Origin: Myxococcales bacterium
GTDB taxonomy: Bacteria > Myxococcota > Myxococcia > Myxococcales > 40CM-4-68-19
Reading direction: 5' to 3'
Length of the DNA: 64,000 bases
Assembly (NCBI GenBank): GCA_038231075.1
Contig: JBBRMA010000015.1
Coordinates: forward strand, 35,904-99,903
The notes below the pieces were generated by a model. The model had not been told where the DNA came from and did no database searches. It saw only the letters and a program-made list of their open reading frames with translations. Shown here in pieces: positions 28,884-57,386 of the stretch. The position numbers and the translations under genes are program-made. The first letter of the stretch is position 1, and every line of letters starts with the position of its first letter.

Positions 28884-28907
28884 TGCGGTCCGCTCCGACG
28901 TGAAAGG

Positions 28908-35614: not shown

Positions 35615-35712
35615 GCCGCGCCCTCCCGCCCTCGTTGCACGCTGCGCGACAATCGGATGACGAGGGCCGCGATGGCAAGGCCACCGCGCAATCTCCATGA
35701 TATTCTTCATCG

Positions 35713-39112: not shown

Positions 39113-42100
39113 CTACTGCGCGGTGCCCACGAAGGTCGTGACGCTGGTCGCCGGCAGCGTCGCGCTGAAGCGGCCGCCGGTGGGCGTGAGGGCGGTCTGG
39201 GCAGCGAGGTTGAGCGTGGCCGAAGTGGTCCAGGGCGTGAGCGCGGCCGCGGAGGCGCCGCTGATCTGCAGCGCGAAGGGCACGGCCGCTGCGGTGGTGT
39301 TGATGGCGACCACGGCCAGCGCTCCCGAGACGGGGTCCCGATAGGCGGAGAGCGAGACACCGGTGGGCCCGCCGGTGGTGCCCAGCCGGACGAACCCGGG
39401 GCGGATGAACTTGCTGAAGTTGCCCATCGTGTAGAGCCGCTTGGTGATCACGCCGCCCTTGTTGAGGAGGCCCTCGTTGTCGTTGTTGAGCCCGATCAGC
39501 CACCAGTAGTGCCAGGCGCTGGCGCCGCCGGTGACCAGGGCCGAGTGGATCCAGCCGGCGACCGTGATGCCGTTGTTGATGTCGGTGCTGGGGCCGTCGA
39601 AGGAGGAGACCTCGGTCTCCCAGAGCGGGATGTTGGCCGGCAGCACGTGCGCCGGAACGTTGGCGTAGATGTCGTATTGGTGCGTGGCGAGGATGTCGAG
39701 GTAGCTGAGCGCCGTGGCGTCGTTGATGATGGTGTCGGCGTAGTCGTAGCCGCCGCCCCAGAGGTGCAGCCAGCCGGAGGACTCGGCGGCCATCAGCTTG
39801 GGCCGCGGATTGAGCGCCGCCAGCTTGGGCCCCAGCACCTTGATGAAGTCGCGCATCTGGGTGCCGGAGTAGAGGCACATCGCGTAGCCGCCGTTGGTGT
39901 TGAAGTCGGGCTCGTTCTGCGCCGAGATGCCGTAGAGAGCGACGCCGCTGGCCTTGGCGGTGTTGACCGCGTTGACCAGGGAGTTGGCCCAGTCGCCGTA
40001 GTGGGCCACGAGCAGCGAGCCTGTGTTCTCGTTGTTGGTGTCCTTGTACGACGGCAGCGGAGACCAGGGCGCGCCCCAGACGATGGCGCCGCGGGCGATG
40101 GCCTTCTTCGCGTCCGACATCGCCGAGCCGGCGCTGCCGTCGAGGAAGCTGCCATTGTCGGCGATGCCGATGCGAAGGATGGAGAGCCCGATTCCGGCGG
40201 TGGGGCTGAAGAACAGGTCGGCCTGGGCGTCGGAGAGCGCGGCGCTCCAGATGTCGGCGGCGCCGAAGCCGTCCATCTTCTGCTTGACGCTGGCGATGTT
40301 CACCACCAGGTCGGTGGCCGCCGAGACGGTGATGACGGCGGTGTCGGTCTTGGTGTTGTCGGCGTGGCTGGTGGCGACCACGTGATAGGTGCCCGCCGAG
40401 GAGGGCGCGGTGTACGCGCCTGCAGTGACGCTCCCGCCGGCGGCGCCCTCGGTCACCGACCAGGTGCACACCGTGTCGATCGAGCCGGTCACCGTGCAGG
40501 TGAAGGTCTGGGTGCCGGCAGTGGTGAGCAGCGCCGTTTTCGGGCTGATGGTGATCGCGACAGGAGGCGGGGCGCTGACGGTGACCGTGGAGCTTGCGCT
40601 CTTGGTCGGGTCGGCGTGGCTGGTGGCGATGACGTGGAAGGTGCCAGCGACCGCAGGGGCCGTGTAGCTGCCGGAGCCGTTGATGGCGCCGCCCGCCGCT
40701 CCCTCTTGCACCGACCAGGTGCAAACCGTGTCGGCCGACCCGGTCACCGTGCAGGTGAACAGCTGCCCGGCGTTGGTCAGCAGGGCGACGGGCTTCGGGC
40801 TGATGGTGACCGCGACGCTCGTCACCGTGACCGTGGCGGTGTCGCTCTTGGTCGGATCCGCGTGGCTGGTGGCGATGACGTGATAGGTCCCCGCGGCCGC
40901 AGGCGCGGTGTACGCGCCGGCGCTGACGGTGCCGCCGGCGGCGCCCTCCTGCAGCGACCAGTTGCACGACGTGTCGGCAGAGCCGGTCACCGAGCAGGTG
41001 AACGCCTGCGCGGCACCGGTGATCAGCGAGACGCTCTTCGGGCTGATGGTGATGGCGACCGGCACGACCACGCCGATGGTGGCGGTGTCGCTCTTGGAGG
41101 GGTCGGCGTGGCTGGTGGCGACGACGTGATAGGTGCCGGCCACTGCGGGCGCGGTGTAGCTTCCGCTGCCGCTGACGGTTCCGCCCGCGGCGCCTTCCTG
41201 CACCGACCACGTGCAGGCCGTGTCGGCCGAGCCGGTCACCGCGCAGGTGAAGGCCTGCCCGGCGCCCGTGAACACCGAGACGTTCTTCGGATTGATGGTG
41301 ACCGCGACGGCCGACACCGTGACGGTGGCGGTGTCGCTCTTGGTCGGGTCGGCGCGGCTGGTCGCGACCACGTGGTAGGTGCCCGGAGTCGCCGGCGCGG
41401 TGTAGCCGCCGTTGGCGCCGATGGCGCCGCCCCCCGCACCTTCCTGCACCGCCCAGGTGCAGACCGTGTCGGCCGAGCCGGTCACCGTGCAGGCGAAGAG
41501 CTGCGCCGCACCCGTGATCAGCGAGGGGCTCTTTGGTGACACGGCCACCGAGACGCTGGTCACCGTCACCGTCGCGACGTCGGTCTTGGTCGGATCGGCG
41601 TGGCTGGTGGCCACGACGTGATAGGTGCCGGCGATTGCGGGAGCGGTGTACGCGCCGGTGCCGCTGACGGTCCCGCCCGAGGCGCCTTCCTGCACCGCCC
41701 AGCCGCAGGCCGTGTCGGCCGAGCCGCTCACCGTGCAGGTGAAGGCCTGCGCGGCGTTGGTGATCAACGAGACGGTCTTCGGACTGACGGCGATGAGGAG
41801 GGTTGCGACCGTGACGGTGGCGGTGTCGCTCTTGGTCGGGTCGGCGTGGCTGGTGGCGACGACGTGATAGGTGCCGGCCACTCCTGGCGCGGTGTAGCTG
41901 CCCGTGCCGTTGACGGTGCCACCCGCGGCGCCTTCCTGTACCGACCAGGTGCAAGCCGTGTCGGCCGAGCCGGTCACCGTGCAGGTGAACGCCTGCGCGC
42001 CGCTGGTCAGCAAGGAGACGGACTTCGGGCCCACCGCGACCGCGACGGTGGTCACGGTGACCGTAGCGGTGTCGCTCTTGGTCGGGTCGGCGTGGCTGGT

Positions 42101-43897
42101 GGCCACGACATGGTAGGTGCCCGCGACCGCTGGGGCCGTGTAGCTGCCCGTCCCGTTCAGCGTGCCGCCCGCCGCGCCCTCCTGGATCGACCAGGTGCAA
42201 GCCGTGTCGGCCGAGCCGGTCACCGCACAGGAGAAGGCTTGGCCGACGCCGGTGAGCAGGGCGACGCTCTTCGGGCTGATGGTGACCGAGACCTTGGTCG
42301 CCGTGACGGTGGCCGTGTCGCTCTTGGTCGGGTCGGCGTGGCTGGTGGCGATGACGTGGTAGGTGCCGCCCGATGCCGGCGCAGTGTACGCGCCGGCTGC
42401 GCTGATGGTGCCGCCCGCCGCGCCCTCCTGAATCGACCAGGTGCACGTCGCGTCGCTCGAGCCGGTCACGGCGCAGCTGAAGGGTTGGGCCGCGCCGGTC
42501 AGCAGCGCGACGCTCTTGGGGCTGACGGCGATCGCCACTTTCGTCACCGTCACGGTGGCAGCGTCGCTCTTGCTCGGGTCGGCGTGGCTGGTGGCGACGA
42601 GGTGATAGGTGCCGGCCACGCCAGGCGCCGTGTACCCGCCGGCAGCGTTGACGGTTCCGCCGGCCGCGCCTTCCTGGATCGAAAAGGTGCAGGCGGTGTC
42701 GGCCGAGCCGGTGACCGAGCACGAGAACGGCTGCGCGGCTCCGGTGATCAGCGAGACGCTCTTCGGGCTCAGCGCCACGGCCACCGGCGGGACGACCGTG
42801 ATGGTCGCCGTGTCGGTGGTGACCCCGTCGGCGTGGCTGGTGGCGACGACGTGGTAGGTGCCCGGGGTCGCGGGCGCCGAGTACGTTGCGGCAGAGGCGC
42901 CGGCCACCGAGACGCTTCCGCCTGCGGCGCCTTCTTGCACCGAAAAGTCGCAGCCGAGGTCGGTGGCGCCGGTGACGTCGCAGCTGAAGGCCTGCGAGCC
43001 ACCCACCAGCACGACGGCGGCCTTCGGCGCCAGGGAGACCGTCACCGGCGGCGGAGCCGACACGGTGATCACCGACGCGCTGCTCCGGGACGGGTCGGCG
43101 TCGCTGGTGGCGATCACGTGGTAGGTGCCCGGCGTGGAGGGCGCCGTGTAGACCCCGCCGGTGACCGTGCCGGCGTAAGGCCCCTCGAGCATCGACCACA
43201 CCACCGCCGTGTCGGGCGAGCCGGTCACCGTCGCGGTCAAGGTCACCGAGGCGCCGATGAGCAGCTTTTCAGCAGGAGGGTCGACGACGACCATCACGAC
43301 CGGGTTGGCCGCGACGGTGACCTCGGCCGAGCCGTGCTTGGTCTCGTCGGCGTGGGCGGTGGCCACGACGTGATAGCTGCCCGGGTTGGCGGGCGCGGTG
43401 TAGAGGCCTTCGAGAGTGACGCTGCCGCCGGCTGCGCCTTCCTGCACCGACCAGCTGATGGCGGTGTCGAGGGCCCCGGTGGCGGTGCCGGCAAAAGAGA
43501 ACGTCGCGCCCGGAGCGAGCGAGACGGCGGAGGGAACGACCTGAACGGTGACTGGCACTGCGGCCACCTCGACCGTGGCCTCGGCAGCGAAGGGTCCGGC
43601 CACGGCGGCGCCGAGAACGTGGAAGCGGCCGGGTGCTGCGGGGGCCGTGTAGAGACCATCGGCGGAGATCGAGCCGCCCGTGCTTCCTTCCTTCACCGAC
43701 CAGACGACCGCTTGGTTGACGAGGCCGACGACGCTGGCGCCGAAGGCCTGCTGCGCGTTGGGCGTCAGCACCACCGAGAGCGGGGCGATGGTGATGCCTC
43801 CGTCGACCGAAACCGGAGCACCCCGCGCACAGGCTGAGCCCAGCAGCGCAAGCACGACGGCGGCAACATTGGCCGGAACGGACCGAACAAAAGGCAT
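39113..43897 (-). CDS. giant lipoprotein: 14 tandem Ig-like (Big_2-like) repeats + C-terminal GH30 glycoside hydrolase
   Basis: 1594 aa from the ATG at 43897 ('MPFVRSVPANVAAVVLALLGSAC' lipoprotein signal). The ORF track extends to 44002. I counted 14 'YTAP...G.YHV.A' repeat cores. The C-terminal 401 aa (39113-40318) carry 'MDGFGAAD', 'SAQNEPD' and 'WETEVSS', and are a close paralog of the GH30 domain at 2360-3545. Confidence 0.85.
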   Translation of the reverse strand: MPFVRSVPANVAAVVLALLGSACARGAPVSVDGGITIAPLSVVLTPNAQQAFGASVVGLVNQAVVWSVKEGSTGGSISADGLYTAPAAPGRFHVLGAAVAGPFAAEATVEVAAVPVTVQVVPSAVSLAPGATFSFAGTATGALDTAISWSVQEGAAGGSVTLEGLYTAPANPGSYHVVATAHADETKHGSAEVTVAANPVVMVVVDPPAEKLLIGASVTLTATVTGSPDTAVVWSMLEGPYAGTVTGGVYTAPSTPGTYHVIATSDADPSRSSASVITVSAPPPVTVSLAPKAAVVLVGGSQAFSCDVTGATDLGCDFSVQEGAAGGSVSVAGASAATYSAPATPGTYHVVATSHADGVTTDTATITVVPPVAVALSPKSVSLITGAAQPFSCSVTGSADTACTFSIQEGAAGGTVNAAGGYTAPGVAGTYHLVATSHADPSKSDAATVTVTKVAIAVSPKSVALLTGAAQPFSCAVTGSSDATCTWSIQEGAAGGTISAAGAYTAPASGGTYHVIATSHADPTKSDTATVTATKVSVTISPKSVALLTGVGQAFSCAVTGSADTACTWSIQEGAAGGTLNGTGSYTAPAVAGTYHVVATSHADPTKSDTATVTVTTVAVAVGPKSVSLLTSGAQAFTCTVTGSADTACTWSVQEGAAGGTVNGTGSYTAPGVAGTYHVVATSHADPTKSDTATVTVATLLIAVSPKTVSLITNAAQAFTCTVSGSADTACGWAVQEGASGGTVSGTGAYTAPAIAGTYHVVATSHADPTKTDVATVTVTSVSVAVSPKSPSLITGAAQLFACTVTGSADTVCTWAVQEGAGGGAIGANGGYTAPATPGTYHVVATSRADPTKSDTATVTVSAVAVTINPKNVSVFTGAGQAFTCAVTGSADTACTWSVQEGAAGGTVSGSGSYTAPAVAGTYHVVATSHADPSKSDTATIGVVVPVAITISPKSVSLITGAAQAFTCSVTGSADTSCNWSLQEGAAGGTVSAGAYTAPAAAGTYHVIATSHADPTKSDTATVTVTSVAVTISPKPVALLTNAGQLFTCTVTGSADTVCTWSVQEGAAGGAINGSGSYTAPAVAGTFHVIATSHADPTKSASSTVTVSAPPPVAITISPKTALLTTAGTQTFTCTVTGSIDTVCTWSVTEGAAGGSVTAGAYTAPSSAGTYHVVATSHADNTKTDTAVITVSAATDLVVNIASVKQKMDGFGAADIWSAALSDAQADLFFSPTAGIGLSILRIGIADNGSFLDGSAGSAMSDAKKAIARGAIVWGAPWSPLPSYKDTNNENTGSLLVAHYGDWANSLVNAVNTAKASGVALYGISAQNEPDFNTNGGYAMCLYSGTQMRDFIKVLGPKLAALNPRPKLMAAESSGWLHLWGGGYDYADTIINDATALSYLDILATHQYDIYANVPAHVLPANIPLWETEVSSFDGPSTDINNGITVAGWIHSALVTGGASAWHYWWLIGLNNDNEGLLNKGGVITKRLYTMGNFSKFIRPGFVRLGTTGGPTGVSLSAYRDPVSGALAVVAINTTAAAVPFALQISGASAAALTPWTTSATLNLAAQTALTPTGGRFSATLPATSVTTFVGTAQ
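40319..43816 (-). repeat. in-frame tandem array of 14 Ig-like repeat units (about 83-88 aa, roughly 250-265 nt each)
   Basis: The protein-level repeat is 'SPKSVSLLTGAAQAF.C.VTGSADTAC.WSVQEGAAGGTV...G.YTAPAVAGTYHVVATSHADPTKSDTATVTV'. Its periodicity is mirrored by regularly spaced plus-strand shadow ORFs (40389, 40680, 40908, 41412, 41625, 41904, 42162 and others). Confidence 0.85.
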
Positions 43898-44009
43898 ACC
43901 GGATAATACCAGAATCGAGTCGCCAGATCGTGGGCCCGGGGGTGGGTGCCGTCGGGCAAAAGTCCGACCTCCGATCTGTGATTGAATCGAAAAGGAGGTC
44001 ATTGGACTA

Positions 44010-45425
44010 ATGAACGCGTCGCAACTTTTTCTATGCCGGGCGCTCTGCGGCGCAGCGCTGATCGCTGGCTGCGCAAGCTACGTGTCGGGCGAGACGCCGC
44101 CGGGAGGTCCCCCTGCGGGCACCGTCGTCATCACTCCGCACGGCGCCTCGGTCTCGGTCGATGGGTCGATGACCTTCAGCGCCACCGTCGGCGGCTCGGC
44201 CGACGCGGGCGTCGACTGGTCGGTGCAGGAGGGCGCAGCCGGCGGCGCCATCGATGCCGAGGGTCTCTACAGCGCGCCCGCGAGCCAAGCGACCTACCAC
44301 GTGGTGGCGAAGAACCGCGCCGACCCGACGAAGTCCGATGTCGCCGCGGTCGCCGTCGTCAACGCCTGGGTTGACATCACGCCCCCCGGCATCTCGCTCG
44401 ACGAAAACGTGAACGGCAGCCCGAACTACGGCGCGCAAGAGGTGGCGGTCGATCCGAGCAATCCAGCGACGGTCTACCTGAGCACGGCCTACCAAGGACT
44501 CTGGCGGTCGGCGGACAGCGGGGCGCACTGGGTCAAGATCAACACCGGACGCAACGGAGACGCGCTGGACGCGGGCCGGGTCTGGGCCTTGGCGATCGAT
44601 CCGGTCTCGCCCCAGACGATCTACGCCTGCAGCGGCTACGGCGTGCTCGGGCTGGGGATCTGGAAATCGACCGACGGAGGCGTCGGCTGGGATCAGCTCT
44701 TCACCTCGAACCCCACCCAGAACCCGACCATCTCCATCAACGGCTCGAACTCGCCGGTGACGCCCGACATCTTCAGCTTCGACCTCGACCCGCTCAATCA
44801 CCTGCACCTGGTCGCGACCTTTCACGCGGGCTGGAAAGGCTTCAGCGGTGCGGGGGTGGTTGAGTCGCTCGACGGCGGAGCGACCTGGGTACTGCACGCG
44901 CCTCCGGACGGGATGGGCTTGGAGCAATACGTGTTCATCCTCAACGACAGCGCGACCTGGCTCGTGGTCGGCGTCGACCCGAGCGCGGGCACGTGGCGCA
45001 CCACCGATTCGGGCAGGACGTTCACCCGCATCAACGGCAACTTCCACTCCGGCGGCGGCTGCCAGCTGCACCGGGCAGGGGGCGGCGCTCTGTACCTCTC
45101 GGGCGTGAACGGAGTCTTCTTCAGCACTGACAACGGCGCTAGCTGGGTGAACGTGGCGCCGGGCGCCAACCGCAGCACGGCGGCGCTGGTGGGCACCGGC
45201 ACCACGCTCTTCGCCAGCAACTCCAACGCAACGCTCGCCGGCAGCGGTTCGCCGCTCTACAACCCGACCCTCTACGCGCCGCCCGGGACCGCCGACGGAG
45301 GCTGGAGCGACTACGGCTCGCAGCAGTACGCCAACGGCGCCAAGCGCTTCGCCTTCGACCAGCAGGGCCGTTTCCTCTTTGCGGCCTCGTGGCGCCAGGG
45401 AGCGTTTCGGCTCGCGACGCAGTGA
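44010..45425 (+). CDS. lipoprotein: 1 Ig-like repeat + Asp-box (BNR) beta-propeller, paralog 2 of 3
   Basis: 471 aa. AGGAGG lies 11 nt upstream. Lipobox 'LIAGC'. It has 'DWSVQEGAAGGAIDAEGLYSAPASQATYHVVA' and the Asp-boxes 'WRSADSGAHW', 'WKSTDGGVGW', 'SLDGGATW', 'WRTTDSGRTF' and 'FSTDNGASW'. It is collinear with 23146-24849. Confidence 0.8.
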   Translation: MNASQLFLCRALCGAALIAGCASYVSGETPPGGPPAGTVVITPHGASVSVDGSMTFSATVGGSADAGVDWSVQEGAAGGAIDAEGLYSAPASQATYHVVAKNRADPTKSDVAAVAVVNAWVDITPPGISLDENVNGSPNYGAQEVAVDPSNPATVYLSTAYQGLWRSADSGAHWVKINTGRNGDALDAGRVWALAIDPVSPQTIYACSGYGVLGLGIWKSTDGGVGWDQLFTSNPTQNPTISINGSNSPVTPDIFSFDLDPLNHLHLVATFHAGWKGFSGAGVVESLDGGATWVLHAPPDGMGLEQYVFILNDSATWLVVGVDPSAGTWRTTDSGRTFTRINGNFHSGGGCQLHRAGGGALYLSGVNGVFFSTDNGASWVNVAPGANRSTAALVGTGTTLFASNSNATLAGSGSPLYNPTLYAPPGTADGGWSDYGSQQYANGAKRFAFDQQGRFLFAASWRQGAFRLATQ

Positions 45426-45490
45426 CCCTTCTTCAGGGGGCCGATGCAGGCCGGGCCTGCCCGGCGCGGGACCGCGGCTGCAAGAGGGTT

Positions 45491-45519
45491 TCCACAAGCA
45501 GCCGTCCATGGCATATAAT
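45491..45519 (+). promoter_or_regulatory. candidate sigma70-type promoter: TCCACA (-35), 17-nt spacer, perfect TATAAT (-10)
   Basis: Read directly. TATAAT at 45514-45519 lies only 10 nt before the ATG at 45530, in a locally AT-rich patch. No Shine-Dalgarno sequence is visible. Confidence 0.35.
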
Positions 45520-45529
45520 TGAACCAACG

Positions 45530-48500
45530 ATGAAAATCATGAACAGCAGACTTGTCCTTGCGATTTGCGGTGCCCTGCTCGCCTGCCGTGGCCCCGACGC
45601 CTCGCCCCGCGCGGCCCCCGCGGCCGGGGTCTCGAGCGGCGCCTTGACCAGCGCGCCCACGCTCGACTCCGGCTTCCCCGTGCACGGCGGCGCGGCCGGC
45701 TCGGGCAGCCCTGTGTCCATCTCCTATGCGACGGTCGGGACCAATCGCCTCGTCGTGCTTGCCATCGAGGGCAACACCATCTCGGGTCTGCCCATCAGCG
45801 TGACGGGCTCGGCGCTGGCCTGGACGCAGCTCGGCGCGCCCGCCCGGTCGGTCAAGAAGCCGCAGCTCTGGACCTCGTGGTGGTCCGCGTGGGCCGCGGC
45901 GCCGACCAGCGAAACCGTCACCATCAAGCTGCCCGCCGGCGGATGGTGGAACTTCGTCGACGCCGAGCTCCTCGCCTTCGCGGGCGCCAGCCAGGCCCTT
46001 GGCGCGAGCGCGACCGCCCACGACAGCGGCGCCAACACCGTCTATCCCTCGGTCACCATCAATGCCGTCGCCGCGGGCTCGGTGTTGCTGGCGGCGGGAA
46101 TCGGGAGCTGGGCGAACCGCTTGCTCGATGCCAACTCGCTCGCGCTCTGGACGCGGCCCACGGCCCACACCTTCGAGTTTTCCACCTGGCTGGCTGAGTA
46201 CAAGACCGCGACCGGCGCCCCGGGTTCGTTCGTGCTCGGGACCACCGGCGGGACCCAGACCGACTCCTGGGCGCTCTTTGCCGTCGAGGTGCTGGCGGCG
46301 GCGCCTGCGGGCGTTGCCGTGGCGGTGAGCCCGAAGACCGCAGCGGTGCAAACCGGCGGCGCGCAGCAGCTGACCGCGACGGTGACTGGCTCGGCCAACA
46401 CCGCGGTGAACTGGCTGGTGCAGGAAGGCGCCGCGGGGGGCGTGGTCACCGCCGCTGGCCTGTATACCGCTCCGTCGGTGGCCGGCACCTATCACGTGGT
46501 CGCGACCAGCCAGGCCGACGGGACCAGCAGCGACTCCGCCACCCTGACGGTGTCCGCGCCTCCGCCGGTTGCGGTCGCGGTGAGCCCGAAGACGGCGGCG
46601 CTCCTCACAGGGGCGGCGCAGCAGTTCACGGCGACAGTGACCGGCTCGGCGAACACGGCCGTCACCTGGGCAGTGCTGGAAGGCGCCGCGGGCGGCGCAG
46701 TCACTGCCGCTGGCCTGTACACCGCTCCGTCGGTGGCCGGCACCTATCACCTGATCGCGACCAGCCAGGCCGACGTGACCGGCAGCGACTCCGCCACCCT
46801 GACGGTGACCGCGCCTCCGCCGGTTGCGGTCGCGGTCAGCCCGAAGAACGCCGCGGTCCTGGCGGGAGCTGCCCAGCAGTTCAGCGCCACGGTGACCGGC
46901 TCGGCGAACACGGCCGTGATCTGGTCGGTGCAGGAAGGCGCCGCCGGGGGCGCAGTCACTGCCTCGGGCCTCTACACGGCGCCAGCCGCGGCTGGCACCT
47001 ACCACGTGGTCGCGACCAGTCAGGCAGACGCGACCAAGAGCGACTCCGCCGCCGTGACAGTGACCGCGGCGGCCCCGCCGGGGGCGCCGCCGACGCTGGA
47101 CAGCGGCTTCCCGGTGCACGTCGGCGCCGGTGGCTCGGCCAGCCCGGTGGCGATTCCGTACTTCACGTCCGGCTCGAACCGCCTCCTCCTCCTCGCCATC
47201 GAGGCGAACACCATCTCCGGGCTCAATGTCTCGGTGTCGGGTTCGGTCCTCAGCTGGCAGCGGGTGAGCGCGCCCGTCCAGTCGGTGAAGGCCCCGCAAT
47301 GGTGGACCGTGTGGTGGTACGCGGTGGCGGCGCTGCCCACTGCAGAGACCGTGACCGTCAAGCTGCCCGCCGGCGGCTGGTGGAACTTCGTCGACGCCGA
47401 GGTGCTCTCGTTCGCCGGCGCCAACCTCGTGCCAGGGGCGACCGGGTCAGCCCACGACGGCGGCACGACCTCGGCCTTCCCGTCGGTGACCATCAACGCC
47501 AGCGCCACCGGGTCCTTGCTGCTGGCAGCCGGGACGGGCTCCTGGTCGACCCGCTCGCTCGACGCCAACTCGATCGCGCTCTGGACGCGCCCCTTCGTCA
47601 ACAACTTCGACTCCACGACCTGGGTCGCGGAGAGCAAGAAAGCCACCACCGCGCCCGGTTCGTACGTGCTCGGGACCACCGGCGGCAACCAGACCGACAC
47701 CTGGGCGCTCTCCGCCATCGAGGTCCTGGCCGCGGTCCCCGCAGGCGTGGCGGTCGCGGTGAGCCCGAAGACGCCGACGCTGATCACCGGCGGCGCCCAG
47801 CAGTTCACGGCCACGGTGACCGGGTCGGCGAACACCGCGGTCATTTGGTCGGTGCAGGAGGGAGCGTCCGGCGGCACCGTCACCGCCGCGGGGGCGTATA
47901 CCGCGCCCGCCGTGGCCGGCGTCTATCACCTGGTCGCGACCAGCCAGGCCGACGCGACCAGGAGCGACACAGCGACCGTGACAGTCACGCCGCCGCCGCC
48001 GGTGGTGGTCGCGGTGAGCCCGAAGACACAGTCGCTCATCGCGGGAGGGTCGCAGCAATTCACGGCGACGGTGACCGGCTCGGCCAACACGGCGGTGACC
48101 TGGTCAGTGCAAGAGGGCGCTTCCGGAGGCGTGATCACCGCCGCCGGGGTCTACACCGCACCTCTTGGGGCCGGCACCTATCACGTGGTCGCGACCAGCC
48201 AGGCCGACGCGTCCAAGAGCGACTCCGCCGCAGTGACGGTGACTGCGCCGCCGCCCGTCGCGGTCGTGGTCAGCCCGAAGACGCCGTCGCTGATCGCGGG
48301 AGGGTCGCAGCAATTCACGGCGACGGTGACCGGCTCTGCGAACACGGGGGTCACCTGGTCGGTGCAGGAAGGCGCCGCCGGAGGTTCCGTGAGCGCCGCG
48401 GGCGCCTACTCCGCCCCTGCGACGGCCGGCGCCTATCACGTGATCGCGACCAGCCTGGCGGATGGGACCAAGAGCGACTCGGCCACCATCACCGTCGCGG

Positions 48501-51500
48501 CGGCGGCGGCGCCCGGCGCGCCTGCGATCGACAGCGGGTTCCCGATCCACGTCGGCACCGGCGGCTCGGGCAACGGCTTGTCCATCACCTACTTTACTCC
48601 GGGCTCCAACCGGCTGGTGCTGCTGGCGATCGAGGCCAACACCATCTCCGGCCTTCCCATCTCGGTCTTCGGCTCGCTGCTGGACTGGAACCCCTACGGC
48701 CCGCCGGTGCAATCGGTGAAGAGCCCGCAGGTCTGGGTCTCCTGGTGGTACGCCTACTCTTCACTGCCCGTGGCGGATACCGTCAACATCAACCTGCCGG
48801 CCGGAGGTTGGTGGAACTTCGTCGACGCCGAGCTGCTCTCGATCTCGAATGGCGTGCTCGGCGCAACCGCCACCGCCAGGGACGCGGGGGCCGGGTCCTC
48901 GTATCCGGCGGTGACCATCACCGCAGTCGGCGGGTCGGGCTCGATGTTGCTCGCGGCGGGGGTCGGCACCTGGTCCACCCGGTCGCTCGACGCCAACTCG
49001 ACCGCGCTCTGGACCCGTCCTTTCGTCAACTCCTTCGACTCCACCACCTGGCTCGCAGAGCGGACGGCGCTGACGCCGGGCCCCGGCGCCTTCACGCTCG
49101 GCACGGTAGGGGGCAACCAGACCGACTCCTGGGCGCTGTCCGCCATCGAAGTGCAGTCGGTGGGACCGCAGCCAGTGGCCATCGCCATCAACCCCAAGAC
49201 TCCTTCGCTGGTCACCGGCGCAACCCAGCAGTTCACCGCCAGCGTGACCAATACGGCCAACACGGCCGTGACCTGGTCGGTGCAGGAAGGCATCGTCGGC
49301 GGCATCATTACCCAGGCCGGCGTGTACACCGCGCCCGGCTCGGCAGGCACCTTCCACGTCACCGGCACCAGCCAGGCCGATCCGACTCGCAGCGACACCG
49401 CGACGTTGACCGTGGCCATTCCGCCGCCGGCCAGCGTAACGGTGGCTCCGGGCACCGCCTCGCTCATCGTCGGCGCGACGCAGCAGTTCAGCGCCACCGT
49501 CGTGGGCCTCGCCGGCACCGCGGTCACCTGGTCGGTGCAGGAGGGGCCGTCCGGCGGCACCATCAGCTCGAGCGGCGTCTATGCCGCACCGGCCGCCGCC
49601 GGCACCTACCACGTGCTCGCCGTCAGCCAGGCCGACGGCACCAAGTCGGGCACCGCCACCATCTTCGTCACGGCTCCGGGCCAGGTGGTGATGCAGGGCA
49701 ACGACCCGATGCGCACCGGCTGGTACCCGAACCAGGCCACGCTCACTCCGTCCCTGGTCTCCAGCGGCACGTTCGGACAGCAGTTCTCCACGCCCGTCAA
49801 CGGGCAGATCTATGCCCAGCCGCTGGTGTGGAACGGCACCCTCCTGATCGCCACCGAGACCAACTGGATCTACGGCCTGGACGCGATCTCCGGCGCCATC
49901 CTCTGGTCGCGCAACCTCGGTACTCCCTTCAATGCCGCCGACCTCGCCTGCGGCGACCTCACGCCCAGCGTCGGCATCACCGGCACCCCCGTGATCGACG
50001 GCGCGACCGGCACCGCCTATCTGGTCGCCAAGTCCTACGTGGCGGGCAGCAGCGGCCCCACCGAGACCAAGATGCACGCGATCGATGTCGGCAGCGGCGT
50101 CGAGCGGCCGTCGTTCCCCGTCACCATCCAGGGCACGGCGCAGAACGCGAGCGGCCAGACCTTCGCGTCGAACACTGAGTTCCAGCGGCCGGCGCTGCTG
50201 CTGATGAACGGCGTCGTCTACGCAGCGTTCGGCGGGCACTGCGATGTGCCGCCCTATCAGGGCTGGGTTGCCGGCGTGACCACGGCTGGAAGGTTGTCCT
50301 CGCTCTGGACCGCGCGGGCCGCGGCGGGGCAGTCGGGCACCGGCATCTGGATGGCCGGCAACGGGCTGATGTCGGATCGCAGCGGCACGTTCTTCCTCGG
50401 CACGGGAAACGCACTGGGCACCGGCGGAACCCCGACCACGCCCACGCCCGGCAACCTGACCCCGAGCGATCTCGGCGAGTCGCTGGTGCGCATGGACGTG
50501 CAGTCCGATGGCACGCTGAAGGCCACCGACTTCTTTACGCCCTACGACGCCGTGCACCTCGACGCCATCGACGCCGACTTCGGCTCGGGCGGCGCAGTCG
50601 GGCTCCCGGCGCCGTACTTCGGCACGGCGTCGATTCCCCGTCTGCTCCTGGCCACAGGCAAGCAGGGCTATCTGTACCTCCTCAACGCCGACGCGCTCGG
50701 GGGCTGCCAGCAGGGGCCCGGCGCCGGCGACCAGGTGGTGGCGCGCGTCGGCCCGACCACCGGAGTCTGGTCGCACCCGGCGGTGTGGCCCGGCGACGGC
50801 GGCTGGGTCTTCCTCAACCCGGCCTTCGCCACCTTCGGCTTCTACAAGTACGCGGTCACCGGCACCGGCGCGCCCACGCTCAATCGCGTGGCCTCGAGCA
50901 ACGACTCCTTCGGCTTCGGCTCGGGCGCGCCCGTGGTCACCAGCAACGGCACGCAGTCGGGCAGCGCCTTGGTCTGGACCGTCTGGATGGCCGACGGCAG
51001 CGGGCAGAACGCGCAGCTCCGCGCCTATGACGCAGCGCCCACGGGCAGCGTGATCGCGCCGCGGTTCTCCGCTCCCATCGGCGCAGGCACCAAGTTCGCC
51101 GCGCCGGGAGTCAGCGGAGGCCGCATCTACGTCGGCGCCCGGGACGGCCACGTGCTCGGATTCGGCGCGCCGGTCGTCGCCCCTCTGACCGGCTCGCAGC
51201 TCTCGTTCCCCAGCACCCTGGTCGGGCAGAGCAGCACCATGGTCGAGACGCTCACCGCCGGCACTGCGGTCACCGTGACTGCCTTCTCCAGCAGCAACGC
51301 GGCCTTCACGTTCGGTGCGCCATCGAGCCCGCTGCCCGTCAGCCTCGCCGCCGGCCAGACGCTGACGGTGCCGGTGATCTTTACTCCGAGCGCCGCGAAG
51401 ATCGCTGCCGGCACGCTCACGGTGGCGAGCAGCGCGGGCCCGCTCCTGGAGGGCGTCACCGGCGTCGGTCTGGCCGCCGCTCCCCTTCTTACCGTGCTGC

Positions 51501-52711
51501 CAACCTCGGTGAGCTTCGGCGGCGTGGTCGTCGGCGGCCAGCTGACCGGTTCGGCCACCTTCACCAACTCGGGCAGCGCGGCACTCACCATCAACGGGGC
51601 CACACCGCCCGCTCCGCCCTTCAGCGCGACCGGCCTGCCGCCCTCGGGCACCACCATCTCCTCCGGCCAGTCCTTCTCCGTCTCGCTCGCCTTCGCACCC
51701 ACGGTCGGCGGCCAGTACACCGATCAGCTGGTGGTGCAGAGCTCGGGCGGCACCCTCACGGTTCCTCTCTCCGGGAACGCGACGGTGCCCGGCGTCTTCC
51801 AGGTCTCGCCGCTCAGCGTGGACTTCGGCTCGGTCAACATCGGCGGCACGCTGCAGCGCTCGTTCATCGTCTCCAACTCCGGAGGCTCGCCGCTGATCGT
51901 CAATCGCTCCAAACCGCCGGTGCTGGGAGTGTTCGTGCGCGGGACCGATCTGTTCGAGGGTACCCCGCTCGCCGCGGGAGCCTCGTTCACCGAGACCGTC
52001 GAGTTCATCCCGACCACCCCCGGCGTCTTCACCGACACCTGGAGCCTCAACTCCGATGCCTCCGCCAGCATCACGACGGTGACCTTCACCGGCACCGCGG
52101 TGGACGTGGGCGTCAAGGCCATCCCCGATCCGGCCGCGGGCGGCTGGCAGATCAACGGCGCGGCCAGCCTGCTCGGCGGCGCGCTCGGGTCCCAGCTGCA
52201 GCTCACTCCCGTGCAGGCGATCGTGGCGGGGTCCGCGTTCTGGCCCACGGCGATTCCCTCGGCCGGCCTCGCCGTCTCGTTCGACGCGCTCCTCGGCGGC
52301 GGCACGGGCGGCGATGGCCTTGCGCTGGTGCTCGGCGATCCTGCCGGTGGCGCGGTGGCGACCTCGCTCGGCGGCACTGGCGGCGGGCTTGGCTTCGCGG
52401 GGATCCCGGGCTTCGCCGTCGCCCTCGACACGACGATGCCGGCCAACAACTTCGTCGGCCTTGCGACCAACGGGGGCGCCGGCCTGACCTGGCTCGCGAC
52501 CTCCGCCAGCGTGCCTTCGCTGCGCTCTGCCTCCCATCACGTCGACGTCGCCTACGCGGCTGGGACCCTCACCGTTTCGCTCGACGGAGCGCCGGTGATC
52601 ACGAAAGCCGTGGCGCTGCCTCCCAGCCTCCTCATCGGTTTCAGCGGCGGCGCCGGCAGCCTGACCGACAACCACGCAGTCTCGAACGTCACCATCAGCA
52701 GCGGGCCCTAG
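45530..52711 (+). CDS. giant multidomain lipoprotein: 3 x (unrecognised ~215-aa module + Ig-like repeats) + PQQ-like beta-propeller + 3 ASH-like (choice-of-anchor-D-like) domains + L-type lectin domain
   Basis: 2393 aa from the ATG at 45530 ('MKIMNSRLVLAICGALLAC' lipoprotein signal). The ORF track starts at 45389. Domain boundaries, read from the translation: modules at 45656, 47090 and 48521; 3+3+2 Ig-like repeats; propeller ~49681-51170 ('YAQPLVWNG', 'DADFGSGG'); ASH-like domains ~51170-52100 ('SVDFGSVNIGGTLQRSFIVSNSGGSPL'); lectin ~52110-52708 ('GGDGLALVLGD...GGGLGFAGIPGFAVALDT'). Confidence 0.85.
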   Translation: MKIMNSRLVLAICGALLACRGPDASPRAAPAAGVSSGALTSAPTLDSGFPVHGGAAGSGSPVSISYATVGTNRLVVLAIEGNTISGLPISVTGSALAWTQLGAPARSVKKPQLWTSWWSAWAAAPTSETVTIKLPAGGWWNFVDAELLAFAGASQALGASATAHDSGANTVYPSVTINAVAAGSVLLAAGIGSWANRLLDANSLALWTRPTAHTFEFSTWLAEYKTATGAPGSFVLGTTGGTQTDSWALFAVEVLAAAPAGVAVAVSPKTAAVQTGGAQQLTATVTGSANTAVNWLVQEGAAGGVVTAAGLYTAPSVAGTYHVVATSQADGTSSDSATLTVSAPPPVAVAVSPKTAALLTGAAQQFTATVTGSANTAVTWAVLEGAAGGAVTAAGLYTAPSVAGTYHLIATSQADVTGSDSATLTVTAPPPVAVAVSPKNAAVLAGAAQQFSATVTGSANTAVIWSVQEGAAGGAVTASGLYTAPAAAGTYHVVATSQADATKSDSAAVTVTAAAPPGAPPTLDSGFPVHVGAGGSASPVAIPYFTSGSNRLLLLAIEANTISGLNVSVSGSVLSWQRVSAPVQSVKAPQWWTVWWYAVAALPTAETVTVKLPAGGWWNFVDAEVLSFAGANLVPGATGSAHDGGTTSAFPSVTINASATGSLLLAAGTGSWSTRSLDANSIALWTRPFVNNFDSTTWVAESKKATTAPGSYVLGTTGGNQTDTWALSAIEVLAAVPAGVAVAVSPKTPTLITGGAQQFTATVTGSANTAVIWSVQEGASGGTVTAAGAYTAPAVAGVYHLVATSQADATRSDTATVTVTPPPPVVVAVSPKTQSLIAGGSQQFTATVTGSANTAVTWSVQEGASGGVITAAGVYTAPLGAGTYHVVATSQADASKSDSAAVTVTAPPPVAVVVSPKTPSLIAGGSQQFTATVTGSANTGVTWSVQEGAAGGSVSAAGAYSAPATAGAYHVIATSLADGTKSDSATITVAAAAAPGAPAIDSGFPIHVGTGGSGNGLSITYFTPGSNRLVLLAIEANTISGLPISVFGSLLDWNPYGPPVQSVKSPQVWVSWWYAYSSLPVADTVNINLPAGGWWNFVDAELLSISNGVLGATATARDAGAGSSYPAVTITAVGGSGSMLLAAGVGTWSTRSLDANSTALWTRPFVNSFDSTTWLAERTALTPGPGAFTLGTVGGNQTDSWALSAIEVQSVGPQPVAIAINPKTPSLVTGATQQFTASVTNTANTAVTWSVQEGIVGGIITQAGVYTAPGSAGTFHVTGTSQADPTRSDTATLTVAIPPPASVTVAPGTASLIVGATQQFSATVVGLAGTAVTWSVQEGPSGGTISSSGVYAAPAAAGTYHVLAVSQADGTKSGTATIFVTAPGQVVMQGNDPMRTGWYPNQATLTPSLVSSGTFGQQFSTPVNGQIYAQPLVWNGTLLIATETNWIYGLDAISGAILWSRNLGTPFNAADLACGDLTPSVGITGTPVIDGATGTAYLVAKSYVAGSSGPTETKMHAIDVGSGVERPSFPVTIQGTAQNASGQTFASNTEFQRPALLLMNGVVYAAFGGHCDVPPYQGWVAGVTTAGRLSSLWTARAAAGQSGTGIWMAGNGLMSDRSGTFFLGTGNALGTGGTPTTPTPGNLTPSDLGESLVRMDVQSDGTLKATDFFTPYDAVHLDAIDADFGSGGAVGLPAPYFGTASIPRLLLATGKQGYLYLLNADALGGCQQGPGAGDQVVARVGPTTGVWSHPAVWPGDGGWVFLNPAFATFGFYKYAVTGTGAPTLNRVASSNDSFGFGSGAPVVTSNGTQSGSALVWTVWMADGSGQNAQLRAYDAAPTGSVIAPRFSAPIGAGTKFAAPGVSGGRIYVGARDGHVLGFGAPVVAPLTGSQLSFPSTLVGQSSTMVETLTAGTAVTVTAFSSSNAAFTFGAPSSPLPVSLAAGQTLTVPVIFTPSAAKIAAGTLTVASSAGPLLEGVTGVGLAAAPLLTVLPTSVSFGGVVVGGQLTGSATFTNSGSAALTINGATPPAPPFSATGLPPSGTTISSGQSFSVSLAFAPTVGGQYTDQLVVQSSGGTLTVPLSGNATVPGVFQVSPLSVDFGSVNIGGTLQRSFIVSNSGGSPLIVNRSKPPVLGVFVRGTDLFEGTPLAAGASFTETVEFIPTTPGVFTDTWSLNSDASASITTVTFTGTAVDVGVKAIPDPAAGGWQINGAASLLGGALGSQLQLTPVQAIVAGSAFWPTAIPSAGLAVSFDALLGGGTGGDGLALVLGDPAGGAVATSLGGTGGGLGFAGIPGFAVALDTTMPANNFVGLATNGGAGLTWLATSASVPSLRSASHHVDVAYAAGTLTVSLDGAPVITKAVALPPSLLIGFSGGAGSLTDNHAVSNVTISSGP
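45656..49680 (+). repeat. super-repeat inside the giant gene: unit = novel module + 3 Ig-like repeats, period 1434 and 1431 nt, third unit truncated (2 Ig)
   Basis: The unit starts were located exactly in frame: 'PTLDSGFPVH' at 45656, 'PTLDSGFPVH' at 47090 and 'PAIDSGFPIH' at 48521. Confidence 0.8.
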
Positions 52712-52753: not shown

Positions 52754-53980
52754 GTGGCGCGCCCGGGGAGGGTCCAAACCATGCGCACCAACGGTAGGCA
52801 GCGCGTCTGGTGGGCGGAGGTTCGGGGATTGCTCGCGGCGTGCTGGGTTGCGAGCGCGCCTCTCGCGGCAGGCTGCGGGCTCGCGCAGGCGACCAGTCCA
52901 GGACCCGGCGACGCGGGCGACGCCGGTGTCTTCGATGGCGGGACCATCCTGGACGGCGGTCCCCAGGCCTGGCGGAGCGTCACTCCGGCCGGGATCACTC
53001 TCGACCCGACCTTGTTCTCCGGCGACAACCACGGCGTCGTGGAGATGGTCGCCGACCGCGCCCACAGCGGCACGCTGTACGCGGGCACCGACTACCAGGG
53101 AATCTGGAAGTCGACCGACTTCGGGCTCACCTGGGCGAAGGTCAGCGCCTCGAGCAGCGCTGTGGACGCCGGCCGCAACTGGGGGATGGGCATCAGCCGC
53201 GACGGCAAGACGCTCTACACCTTCGCAGGCTACGCCAGTGGCGGGCTCTGGATGTCGAAGGACGGCGGCGTCACCTGGACGCAGCGCTGGACCGACCCGA
53301 CCGGCCACTCGGTTGGCAATGACCTGTACATGATCGACATCGACCCGGCCGACGATCGGCACCTGCTGATCACCCTGCACGGCAACGCGCCGACGGCCTC
53401 GTACAACAACCACATCTTCGAGAGCAGCAACGGCGGCCTGACCTGGCGCGACGCGGGCGGCCCCGGCGTGACCAACAGCGCCTATGTCTTCTTCATCACT
53501 TCGACCACCTGGCTCGCCATCTCGCAATGGAACAACAACACCAACGGCACCTGGCGCACCACCGATTCGGGCGCCAACTGGTCGATGGTCGCCGACATCG
53601 AGCACGGCCACGGCAACAGCCAGATCGCGGTGCTGCCCGGCCTGGTCTATCTGCCCGGCATCTCGAAGTCGGGCGGCGGCGTGTGGCGCTCCTCGGACTC
53701 CGGGGCGACCTGGACGCACGTGCTCTCGAGCGCAGCGGAGGCCACCATCGTCGCCACTCCGACAAGCCTCTATGCCTCTTACGGCTGGTCCACCGGCGGC
53801 GACAACGACCCGCAGCTCTTCCACGCTTCGCGAAGCGCCGACACGGTCTGGGTCCGAGACACCCGGCCAGGCGGCATGAGCAACGGCGCCAAGCGGGCCG
53901 CTGTGGTCTTCGACGGCACGCACTACGTAGTCGTGATGGGATGTTTCGATGCCGGGATCTGGCGCTTCGTCGAGCCCTGA
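52754..53980 (+). CDS. lipoprotein, Asp-box (BNR) beta-propeller, paralog 3 of 3 (no Ig repeat)
   Basis: 408 aa. An in-frame ATG at 52781 is an alternative start. Lipobox 'LAAGC'. Asp-boxes: 'WKSTDFGLTW', 'SKDGGVTW', 'SSNGGLTW', 'WRTTDSGANW' and 'WRSSDSGATW'. The C-terminal 'SNGAKR' block is shared with the other two paralogs. Confidence 0.75.
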   Translation: MARPGRVQTMRTNGRQRVWWAEVRGLLAACWVASAPLAAGCGLAQATSPGPGDAGDAGVFDGGTILDGGPQAWRSVTPAGITLDPTLFSGDNHGVVEMVADRAHSGTLYAGTDYQGIWKSTDFGLTWAKVSASSSAVDAGRNWGMGISRDGKTLYTFAGYASGGLWMSKDGGVTWTQRWTDPTGHSVGNDLYMIDIDPADDRHLLITLHGNAPTASYNNHIFESSNGGLTWRDAGGPGVTNSAYVFFITSTTWLAISQWNNNTNGTWRTTDSGANWSMVADIEHGHGNSQIAVLPGLVYLPGISKSGGGVWRSSDSGATWTHVLSSAAEATIVATPTSLYASYGWSTGGDNDPQLFHASRSADTVWVRDTRPGGMSNGAKRAAVVFDGTHYVVVMGCFDAGIWRFVEP

Positions 53981-54050: not shown

Positions 54051-54902
54051 ATGAAACCGATGCCCGATCCGACTCCCCGACCTGTCCTCGCCGTCCCGCC
54101 GATCGCGGCGCTGTCGCCTGCCGATCGTGCACGGCTCGAACGGTCCTTCGCGGAGGATGGCTACGCGATCATCCCGGCGGTGGTCTCACCGGAGCGGCTG
54201 GCCAGCCTGAAGACCCGCATCCTCGAGGAGTTCGAGCGCAGCAAGAGGGAGGGCGAGCTCTTCTCCGGCGGCGGCCTGATGAGCGGCCACCTCAACTGCT
54301 TTCCCGGCGCCGAGTCGCGCTTCATCTACGAGGAGCTGGAGGCGCACGGGGTGATCGACCTGGTCCGCGCCCTCATGCCCAAGGCGACGCGGCTGCCGAA
54401 CGTGGGCTGCAACCTGAACCTGCCCGGCAGCGTGGTGCAGCACTACCATGTCGATCGGCCCTTCACGCAGGACTTCATGATCGTGAACGTCGCCCTGGTG
54501 GACACCGCCATCGCCAACGGCGCCATCGAGCTGGCGCCCAAGTCGCACCAGAAGTTCTACAAGTTCTGGCGCTTCGCCATCGAGCGGCCGCACCGCGCCG
54601 CCGTGCGCGTCGAGATGAAGCAGGGCGATGTCCTCATCCGCACCTCGAACCTCTGGCACCGCGGGATGCCGAACCTGACGCAGGTGGCGCGGCCGATGGT
54701 GGCGCTCACCTGGGAGGACGGCGGCAGCACCGAGCCCGACCCGTACGGGATGTGGGACGGCAAGATCAAGTTCCGGCCCAACTGGTACCGGCCGAACTTC
54801 CTCGGACGGCTGCGCGAGCGCACCTTCATCGCGGCGCCCATCACCTACTCGGCGTACCGCTTCGTGCGCTCGCTGGTCGGCACGAAGGGCTACGATCACT
54901 GA
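54051..54902 (+). CDS. phytanoyl-CoA dioxygenase (PhyH) family Fe(II)/2-oxoglutarate oxygenase
   Basis: 283 aa. It has 'QHYHVD' (HxD) and a distal 'LWHRGMPNLTQVARPMVALTW' (H..N....R) pattern. Confidence 0.75.
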   Translation: MKPMPDPTPRPVLAVPPIAALSPADRARLERSFAEDGYAIIPAVVSPERLASLKTRILEEFERSKREGELFSGGGLMSGHLNCFPGAESRFIYEELEAHGVIDLVRALMPKATRLPNVGCNLNLPGSVVQHYHVDRPFTQDFMIVNVALVDTAIANGAIELAPKSHQKFYKFWRFAIERPHRAAVRVEMKQGDVLIRTSNLWHRGMPNLTQVARPMVALTWEDGGSTEPDPYGMWDGKIKFRPNWYRPNFLGRLRERTFIAAPITYSAYRFVRSLVGTKGYDH

Positions 54903-55951: not shown

Positions 55952-57265
55952 CTATTGGTGCCCGCGCCCGACGCCGTAGTAGGTGAAGCCCTGCTCGCGC
56001 ATGCGGCGCTGGCTCCAGATGTTCCGGCCGTCGAAGACCACCGGCGCGGCCATCAAGGTCTTGATGCGGTTGAAGTCGGGCTGGCGGAACTCGTTCCACT
56101 CGGTCACCAGGAAGAGCGCGTCGGCGCCCTCGACCGCGGTGTACTGGTTGTCCGCGTAGGTGACGCGATCGCCCAGCACCTTGCGCGTCGCCGCCATGGC
56201 GACCGGATCGTGCGCGGTCACCGTCGCGCCGTCGGCGAGCAGCTCCTCGATCACGGCCAGCGCCGGCGCGGCGCGCACGTCGTCGGTCTTGGGCTTGAAG
56301 GCGAGGCCCCAGAGCGCCAGCTTCTTGCCGCGCAGGCCGCCGAGCGGCGCGAAGTGGGTGCGCGCCTTCTGCGCCAGCAAGCGCTTCTGCCGATCGTTGA
56401 CCGCGTCGACCGCCGCCAGCATCGCGTAGTCGAGGCCGTGGTTGCGCGCGGTCGCCACCAGCGCCTTCACGTCTTTGGGAAAGCAGGAGCCGCCATAGCC
56501 GACGCCGGGAAAGAGGAACGGGTGGCCGATGCGCTTGTCGGCCCCCATCGCCTTGCGGACGTTGTCGGCGTCCGCGCCCACGCGCTCGCAGAGGGCGGCG
56601 ATCTCGTTCATGAAGGAGATGCGGGTGGCGAGCATGGCGTTGGCCGCGTACTTGGTCAGCTCCGCCGAGCGCGGGTCCATGAAGTACATGGGGCTCTCGG
56701 TGCGCATGTAGGGTGCGTACAGATCGGCCATGATCTGGCGCGCGCGGTCGCTCTCGACGCCGATGACGATGCGGTCCGGGCGCTGGAAGTCGTCGATCGC
56801 GGCCCCTTCCTTGAGGAACTCGGGGTTCGAGACGACGTCGAGCGGCACCTTGGTCCGCGCCGACAGCTCGGCCTGCATGCGGCTCGCGGTGCCGACCGGA
56901 ACGGTGCTCTTGTTGATGATGACGGTGTAGCGCTCGGCCGCGCTCGCCACCTCGTGGGCGACCTTCATCACCGCGCGCATGTCGGCGTTGCCGTCGTCGC
57001 CCTGCGGGGTGCCGACGGCGATGAAGACCACCTCCGCGCTCTTGACCGCCGTCGCCAGATCGGTGGTGAACGTCAGGCGACCGGCGTTGATGTTGCGCCC
57101 GAGCAGCTCGTTGAGGCCGGGCTCGTAGATCGGCGACTCGCCTTTTTGCAGAAGCGCGATCTTCTCCGCGTCGATGTCGATGCAGACGACGTCGTGCCCG
57201 GTCTCGGCGAGGCACGTTCCGGTGACGAGCCCCACGTAACCTGTTCCAGCCACAGCGATGCGCAT
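55952..57265 (-). CDS. ugd: UDP-glucose 6-dehydrogenase
   Basis: 437 aa from the ATG at 57265, with GGAGGAAG 6 nt upstream. '[13 protein letters not shown]', 'NPEFLKEG' and 'GGSCFPKD' (catalytic Cys) are present. The ORF-track start at 57325 was rejected. Confidence 0.9.
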
Positions 57266-57386
57266 GCGGTCACTTCCTCCGAGCGGAAAAGAGGCGAGGC
57301 TAGCCGACGTCGCCGGGTGGGGCAATCTCGACTTCGGCGCGACAACCCGCTTCGCGCGCTCGCTCGAGTCGCGCTACAGTTTTCGC

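Follow-up and report, generated by a model that had tools for sequence, protein, structure and literature searches.

A triplicated tryptophan-rich module of a myxobacterial lipoprotein as a candidate glycan-binding branch of a large unnamed extracellular domain family

Carbohydrate-binding modules (CBMs) decorate the "evolved" distal tail (Dit) and Tal proteins of siphophages that infect lactic acid bacteria, and the binding of host surface polysaccharides and other saccharides, including exopolysaccharide (EPS), by such Dit and baseplate decorations is established (PMC10688798, PMC7291167). CBM-like baseplate accessory proteins have also been described from mycobacteriophages (PMC13252515). 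Here, a module of 216-219 amino acids (aa) is examined that occurs three times in a giant lipoprotein encoded in a window of 64,000 nucleotides (nt) from a Myxococcales bacterium (assembly GCA_038231075.1, contig JBBRMA010000015.1, positions 35,904 to 99,903). Its likeness to the CBMs of lactic acid bacteria siphophages, which are accessory beta-sandwiches at the tail tip, is one of role only: those CBMs are insertions in the galectin domain of Dit with known BppA-like folds, and no sequence or structural match of the module to them was found. With ConA-like and jelly-roll CBMs and lectins (LamG, legume lectin, CBM6/35-type), the module shares a similar size, an all-beta build and attachment to glycoside hydrolases, whereas its topology differs from theirs as far as Foldseek can detect. 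The module is interpreted here, with a probability of about 0.5, as a non-catalytic glycan-binding (CBM-like) domain of clade-specific specificity that is deployed multivalently in this protein.

The three copies lie in a single open frame (45389-52711) with a likely ATG start at 45530. A DNA repeat finder places the copies from 45654, 47088 and 48519, spaced by 1434 and 1431 nt, and the translated alignment agrees with the three collinear, in-frame copies of these periods that had been recorded in a first-pass annotation made from the sequence alone. Copies 2 and 3 are 68% and 61% identical to copy 1 at the amino acid level over 216-219 aa with no meaningful gaps, and nucleotide identity among the copies is 69-73% over 300 nt. 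A total of 101 columns are invariant across the three translated copies, and these contain every motif block that the annotation had listed. Each copy carries 10-11 Trp (4.6-5.0%) and no Cys which, together with 15 predicted strands, bears out its description as Trp-rich, beta-rich and devoid of Cys. Likewise, the immunoglobulin (Ig)-like repeats said to follow the copies in groups of three, three and two are recovered as a 255-nt Big_2 unit repeated eight times in a 3+3+2 layout, although the last of them closes at 49684 rather than at the 49680 originally given.

Synonymous divergence (dS) between pairs of copies is 0.6-0.9 by the Nei-Gojobori method, at a nonsynonymous to synonymous ratio (dN/dS) of 0.26-0.43; the duplications are therefore ancient, and purifying selection acts on every copy. 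Comparable values were obtained for the Big_2 repeats. Both a recent repeat expansion and an assembly artefact were considered in this window of about 70% G+C and were rejected due to the 27-31% nucleotide divergence between copies and the dS values. The same measurements bear on the proposal that the module is a functionless spacer or a decaying internal duplication. The repetitiveness of the surroundings would suit such an origin, with eight Big_2 repeats in the giant protein and about 14 in a neighbouring gene, but the level of constraint at this dS, the 101 invariant columns, the retention of the module in other genomes and other architectures, and its confidently predicted fold (see below) make this proposal very improbable.

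Relatives of the module are few at close range and numerous at a distance. A word-indexed search that used only the three window copies as queries returned no relatives. Six proteins, namely the giant protein itself and only five others (P0002-P0006), emerged when 1.84 billion cluster representatives were scanned exhaustively by hmmsearch with a profile of the three window copies only. Four proteins (P0001-P0004), each at E ≤1e-10, constitute the close clade among the 1.84 billion representatives; P0004 was recovered at E 1e-17, and the more distant P0005 and P0006 at 9e-5 and 3e-4, respectively. P0002 is a contig-end fragment from a Myxococcales metagenome-assembled genome (locus L001) that comprises a lipobox, a module, two Big_2 repeats and a second module, while P0003 (locus L002) is a 912-aa protein with a signal, a module, three Big_2 repeats and a GH30 domain. 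Profile searches that started from P0005 and P0006 yielded 35 proteins at first and at least 509 subsequently, each of them labelled "hypothetical" and with no Pfam match on the domain itself. Families of unknown function are common. Alignment with hhalign of a close-clade profile (A5) to a wider-family profile built without any close-clade member (A6) gave a probability of 94.8% and an E-value of 5e-8 over 187 of 219 columns; the module is thus a rare, divergent, Trp-enriched branch of a large unnamed extracellular domain family.

The wider family (P0005-P0151, from environmental bacteria and archaea, with the signature V(S/T)GGGLTW ... VE(I/V)L) resembles the module in being of equal length, all-beta, extracellular and mounted on Ig/FN3-type stalks. 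Identity between the window clade and the wider family is only 19-30%, however, and the window clade has about twice the Trp and its own motifs (DSGFP, GGWWNFVDA, LWxRP and QTDxW). Further, the module of the giant protein is internal and triplicated, whereas that of the wider family is a single C-terminal copy that follows fn3, PASTA, SdrD_B, CarboxypepD_reg, Big_3_5, Big_7, DUF4082 or BACON-type spacers. In P0079, P0084 and locus L003 the domain comes after the C-terminal part of galactose-/glyoxal-oxidase-like enzymes, and in P0005, P0006 and locus L006 it is a free secreted protein of 200-260 aa. For P0024 and P0034, the genomic context told little beyond a frameshifted glyoxal-oxidase fusion and neighbours that modify sugars. 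The fusion is found in L003 (4648-8549), where a 1025-aa Glyoxal_oxid/Kelch/fn3 gene meets an apparent frameshift within FN3 and is followed by the module as an N-truncated open reading frame (ORF) of 182 aa (P0024); the two are probably one gene split by a sequencing error or a mutation.

Comparison with characterized families was negative throughout. No Pfam or NCBIfam family matched the three copies at E ≤1, and none was found for the relatives P0004-P0006. PHROGs had no match for a window copy and one-off matches only among 34 family members, probably caused by flanking domains. Searches of PDB chains by phmmer and hmmsearch with module sequences and profiles A2, A3 and A6 returned nothing credible, the sole match being RidA at E 0.47, and no glycoside hydrolase (GH) or polysaccharide lyase (PL) family matched the module in Pfam or by Foldseek against the PDB. 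An AlphaFold2 model computed with the three copies as alignment had a pLDDT of 64; this rose to 87.5 (pTM 0.87) with 34 family sequences because of the added wider-family members, and the resulting model has 15 strands in one all-beta domain. For a solved fold, a TM of about 0.5 or better or a Foldseek E <1e-3 was looked for, and among 350,542 PDB chains none matched at E ≤1e-3, the best E being 0.017 and TM not exceeding 0.31. Viral jelly rolls and those of GH172 type headed the sub-threshold list, together with integrin domains and PNGase F. As identities for the module, a ConA-like/LamG fold, a jelly-roll enzyme fold of PL/GH type and an Ig-like repeat were weighed, and the Foldseek comparison with the PDB supported none of them. 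Thus, the first-pass statement that the module maps to no known domain family holds across Pfam, NCBIfam, PHROGs and the sequence and structure searches of the PDB, none of which produced the confident match to a characterized family that the annotation itself had named as grounds for withdrawal. The accompanying claim of a new module stands in that no characterized family or solved fold was matched, but the module is not confined to this one protein, since an unannotated family of at least 509 proteins was found.

Predicted viral structures gave a different result from the PDB. Foldseek against BFVD returned 45 matches at E ≤1e-3 with TM up to 0.81, the best being A0A6J5LA62 (E 1.7e-8, TM 0.81, 23% identity), and "minor tail proteins" from phages of Mycobacterium and Gordonia are frequent among these matches. 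As judged from models, the fold of the module recurs in phages, with no solved representative detectable by Foldseek. A scan of IMG/VR with the wider-family profile identified 16 loci. In L007, L008, L010 and L016, the domain takes up the first ~210 residues of a protein of ~600 aa, and in L010 the gene stands directly after the tape-measure gene, with a tail assembly chaperone upstream and an endolysin downstream; the C-terminal part of its product matches the PHROG entries "minor tail protein" and "distal tail protein Dit". Profile A6 aligns to the N-terminus of the L010 protein at a probability of 97.2% (E 4.5e-11, 205 columns). Tandem copies of the wider-family module, two to three in number, were found in proteins of viral contigs (L011 4455-5936 and L018 5509-8628), such that the domain is multiplied in phages too, and in L012 and L017 the domain is joined to repetitive fibre-like tails. 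These domains of high-GC siphophages and prophages (L007, L008, L010 and L016, with A0A6J5LA62, A0A0F6SJ03, A0A2Z5XVD2 of phage PP and A5YJY9 in BFVD) resemble the window module in predicted fold (Foldseek E 1.7e-8 to 1e-3, TM 0.55-0.81) and, like it, are without a solved structure; they differ in that they sit in the virion baseplate, whereas the window module belongs to a cellular lipoprotein.

At the sequence level, profile A3 showed no significant similarity to gp21 of Mycobacterium phage Tweety (probability 0.1%), and neither a module from the window nor a member of the wider family found any counterpart by tblastn in 50,697 phage genomes, with E-values allowed up to 10. The Tweety gene (L005 10144-11034), a 296-aa ORF equated with the BFVD match A5YJY9 on the basis of its length, immediately follows a D-Ala-D-Ala carboxypeptidase tail gene; no Pfam family matches its product, which is labelled "hypothetical protein" in GenBank and "minor tail protein" in UniProt.

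The phage relatives raise the prospect that the module serves in adhesion or as a scaffold, through contacts with proteins or the cell envelope; it might oligomerize, or dock to a component of the outer membrane or of a secretion system, without a carbohydrate ligand, since the homologous phage domain is attached to Dit, a hub of protein-protein assembly. The start of module 1 only about 24 residues from the predicted lipid anchor of the giant protein is in keeping with such a role, as is the lack of a CBM family match. Yet the module travels with carbohydrate-active domains (GH30 and galactose-oxidase-like enzymes) in unrelated lineages, it also occurs as a free secreted protein, its conserved Trp-rich loops are more typical of sugar platforms, and three spaced copies point to a polymeric ligand. 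A scaffold role is therefore considered unlikely, and it ranks just behind the enzymatic alternative discussed below.

That alternative concerns the conserved residues. In a 20-sequence alignment (A4) that includes the three window copies, D4, V49, G51, L54, W56, W76, A78, G116, W178, G190 and E211 are the only universal positions, and the window copies conform to the core pattern shared with the wider family, including G51-x-x-L54-x-W56. Among polar residues, invariance extends across the close clade and the wider family at D4 and E211 only. ConA-like and jelly-roll CBMs and lectins have structural Ca2+ sites, of which the conserved acidic residue close to each end of the module is reminiscent. 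The two carboxylates could alternatively serve a small catalytic domain whose substrate would be the polysaccharide of the surrounding gene cluster and which would found a new family of glycoside hydrolases, lyases or esterases; this is the principal competitor of glycan binding. The CAZyme-rich context (GH30, GH44 and the galactose-oxidase-like fusion) would be equally natural for an enzyme, and the weakest tier of Foldseek matches in the PDB includes jelly-roll glycosidases (GH172, EngBF and PNGase F; probability 0.4-0.75). These matches are not significant, however, at E ≥0.017 and TM ≤0.31. Moreover, most of the other polar invariants of the wider family (for example D39, N66, E73, D146, Q159, Q164, Q176 and D193 in the numbering of A6) are replaced in the window clade by an invariant set of its own, which would be unusual for an active site, and triplication along a stalk, a terminal place after Ig/FN3 spacers and a phage Dit location typify binding modules rather than enzymes. 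A catalytic role is thus judged improbable, though it is the leading alternative.

The glycan-binding reading is favoured on the following grounds. The shuffling of the module among GH30, oxidase and bare Ig stalks, its occurrence as a free secreted form and in tandem copies, and its distal-tail position in phages argue for an accessory binding module. The pattern of conservation, in which a universal scaffold appears to carry clade-specific polar and loop residues, fits diversified binding and favours a glycan-binding module with clade-specific specificity. Invariant positions make up 39% of predicted loops and 37% of predicted strands; they include a nine-residue aromatic run, 95-GGWWNFVDA-103, in a predicted loop, as well as R155, Q201 and D203. 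This run together with R155, D158/N160 and Q201/D203 may form the binding face. The first-pass annotation had suggested a carbohydrate-binding or catalytic module; indirect support for binding comes from the GH30 fusion, the co-occurrence with galactose-oxidase-like enzymes, the position at phage tail tips and the polysaccharide loci described below, while both the carbohydrate nature of the ligand and its identity are inferred. Several observations weigh against this reading. Pfam CBM models do not match the module, and for no member of the wider family, whether from cells or from phages, has a function or structure been established by experiment. The two universal carboxylates would also suit a catalytic pair, and a second catalytic activity would accord just as well with the GH30 fusion and the EPS locus. 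The putative binding face is assigned solely from predicted secondary structure. Finally, profile A5 does not align significantly with the L010 phage domain (probability 2.6%), such that the link between the window clade and phages is transitive through A6, with agreement at the level of fold and no direct sequence link.

If the module binds glycans, the three copies, spaced along a lipid-anchored stalk by two to three Big_2 repeats each, would provide a multivalent grip on a repeating polymer, most likely the exopolysaccharide of the surrounding cluster. The polymer would thereby be held or presented to the distal propeller and lectin-like domains of the giant protein and to the neighbouring GH30 and GH44 enzymes. 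A broader and more tentative proposition, held at somewhat less than even odds, is that a single new CBM family, its fold lacking any experimentally solved member, spans the lipoproteins of myxobacterial EPS loci (here as a three-copy EPS "rake"), secreted GH30 and galactose-oxidase-like enzymes of soil microbes, and the Dit proteins of high-GC siphophages, so that one ancient scaffold with loop sets particular to each clade would serve both bacteria and their viruses in gripping cell-surface polysaccharides. Glycan binding would turn at least 500 sequence clusters, for which there is neither a Pfam model nor a solved structure, into a new family of CBM type, and it would assign a name and a testable function to a domain that recurs in soil metagenomes, in actinophage tail tips, where receptor recognition and host range are at stake, and in myxobacterial EPS machinery, where matrix retention or processing is. 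The rare window clade, with its invariant Trp-rich loops, would be a clean system for mapping the determinants of specificity on a shared scaffold. Even with a different function, the unannotated family deserves a Pfam entry.

The genomic setting of the close clade is consistent across loci. The window holds a polysaccharide biosynthesis and export cluster (Table 1) that also includes epimerases and dehydratases, and three of the three close-clade loci with usable context (the window, L001 and L002) are polysaccharide loci, the contig of P0004 being too short to count. L001 encodes Wza, a GT4 and, directly upstream of the module gene, a BNR protein 75% identical to the 52754-53980 product of the window. 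The neighbours of P0003 in L002 are Wzx, PIG-L, a methyltransferase, AsnB, two GT2 and Acyl_transf_3. P0003 shares 61.5% identity with aa 6-514 of the giant protein in its N-terminal half and 76% identity in its GH30 part with that of the lipoprotein encoded at 39113-44002; compared with the latter, a module and three Big_2 repeats replace the long Ig stalk.

Table 1. Positions in the window of the giant lipoprotein gene, its parts and its neighbours.
Feature	Position	Strand	Remarks
GT87-like gene	24895-26226		
GT4	26229-27419	-	
Wza-type Poly_export	28884-29546		
GH44	32286-34388		
Hexapeptide acyltransferase	35697-36833		
Lipoprotein, 1629 aa	39113..44002	-	about 14 near-identical Big_2 and C-terminal GH30; divergent to giant gene
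BNR/sortilin-like (Asp-box propeller) secreted protein, upstream neighbour	44010..45425	+	Big_2-like N-terminal segment
Sigma-70-like promoter TCCACA-17-TATAAT	45491..45519	+	10/12 consensus match, 0.1 expected in shuffles; consensus match only
Coding sequence (CDS), 2393-aa lipoprotein	45530..52711	+	3x(module + Big_2 stalk), then beta-propeller, choice-of-anchor-D Ig-like, lectin-like
Signal peptide with lipobox, MKIMNSRLVLAICGALLAC, Cys19	45530..45586	+	read from translation
Module copy 1	45656..46312	+	aa 43-261; repeat finder, alignment, AlphaFold model
3 Big_2 Ig-like repeats, 255 nt each	46313..47077	+	Pfam and DNA repeat finder
Module copy 2	47090..47746	+	aa 521-739; repeat finder, alignment, hidden Markov model scan
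3 Big_2 Ig-like repeats	47747..48511	+	Pfam and DNA repeat finder
Module copy 3	48521..49168	+	aa 998-1213; repeat finder, alignment
2 Big_2 Ig-like repeats	49175..49684	+	Pfam and DNA repeat finder
Beta-propeller region, 498 aa after last Big_2	49685..51172	+	weak BamB/PQQ-like similarity
Choice-of-anchor D / HYDIN-ASH type Ig-like domains	51182..52099	+	NCBIfam NF012200, Pfam PF22544, DUF1573
Legume-lectin-like domain, C-terminal 199 aa	52112..52708	+	PDB 7elv "legume lectin", E 1.4e-5, residues 11-186
BNR/sortilin-like paralogue, downstream neighbour	52754..53980	+	
UDP-glucose dehydrogenase	55952-57325	-	

The giant CDS has a G+C content at third codon positions (GC3) of 0.89. Its candidate promoter ends 10 nt short of the ATG; a Shine-Dalgarno motif is not evident ahead of that codon, and the mRNA may carry a very short leader or none. 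The protein is predicted from its lipobox (LLAC, residues 16-19) to be lipid-anchored at the N-terminus, which would make module 1 anchor-proximal, and equivalent ...AC or ...SC lipobox-like motifs are present in P0002, P0003 and P0004. In the whole protein, Pfam recognizes eight Big_2 stretches and HYDIN/ASH-type Ig domains, and NCBIfam places the choice-of-anchor D model NF012200 on three stretches near the C-terminus (E 4.6e-19). The propeller region matches BamB at an E-value of about 7e-4 over 85 aa, with Beta-prop_ACSF4 below the Pfam cut-off. The lectin-like part is a separate C-terminal domain, distinct from the module, and its match to 7elv, together with the lipobox, makes the earlier picture of a lectin-tipped protein with membrane-proximal modules a fair one. 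Two antisense ORFs within the CDS (47020-47922 and 48754-49578, both on the minus strand; GC3 >0.9) are probably high-GC, repeat-driven artefacts and not genes.

Elsewhere in the cluster, a MauG-like di-haem cytochrome c peroxidase (27528-28883, plus strand) and a PhyH-family dioxygenase (54051-54902, plus strand) are candidates for unusual tailoring. Three further ORFs (29553-30785, 30782-32269 and 36905-39109, plus strand) are coding-like, with a GC3 of about 0.9 and no Pfam match, and the product of 30782-32269 has a homologue of 41% identity in L001, where it adjoins Wza.

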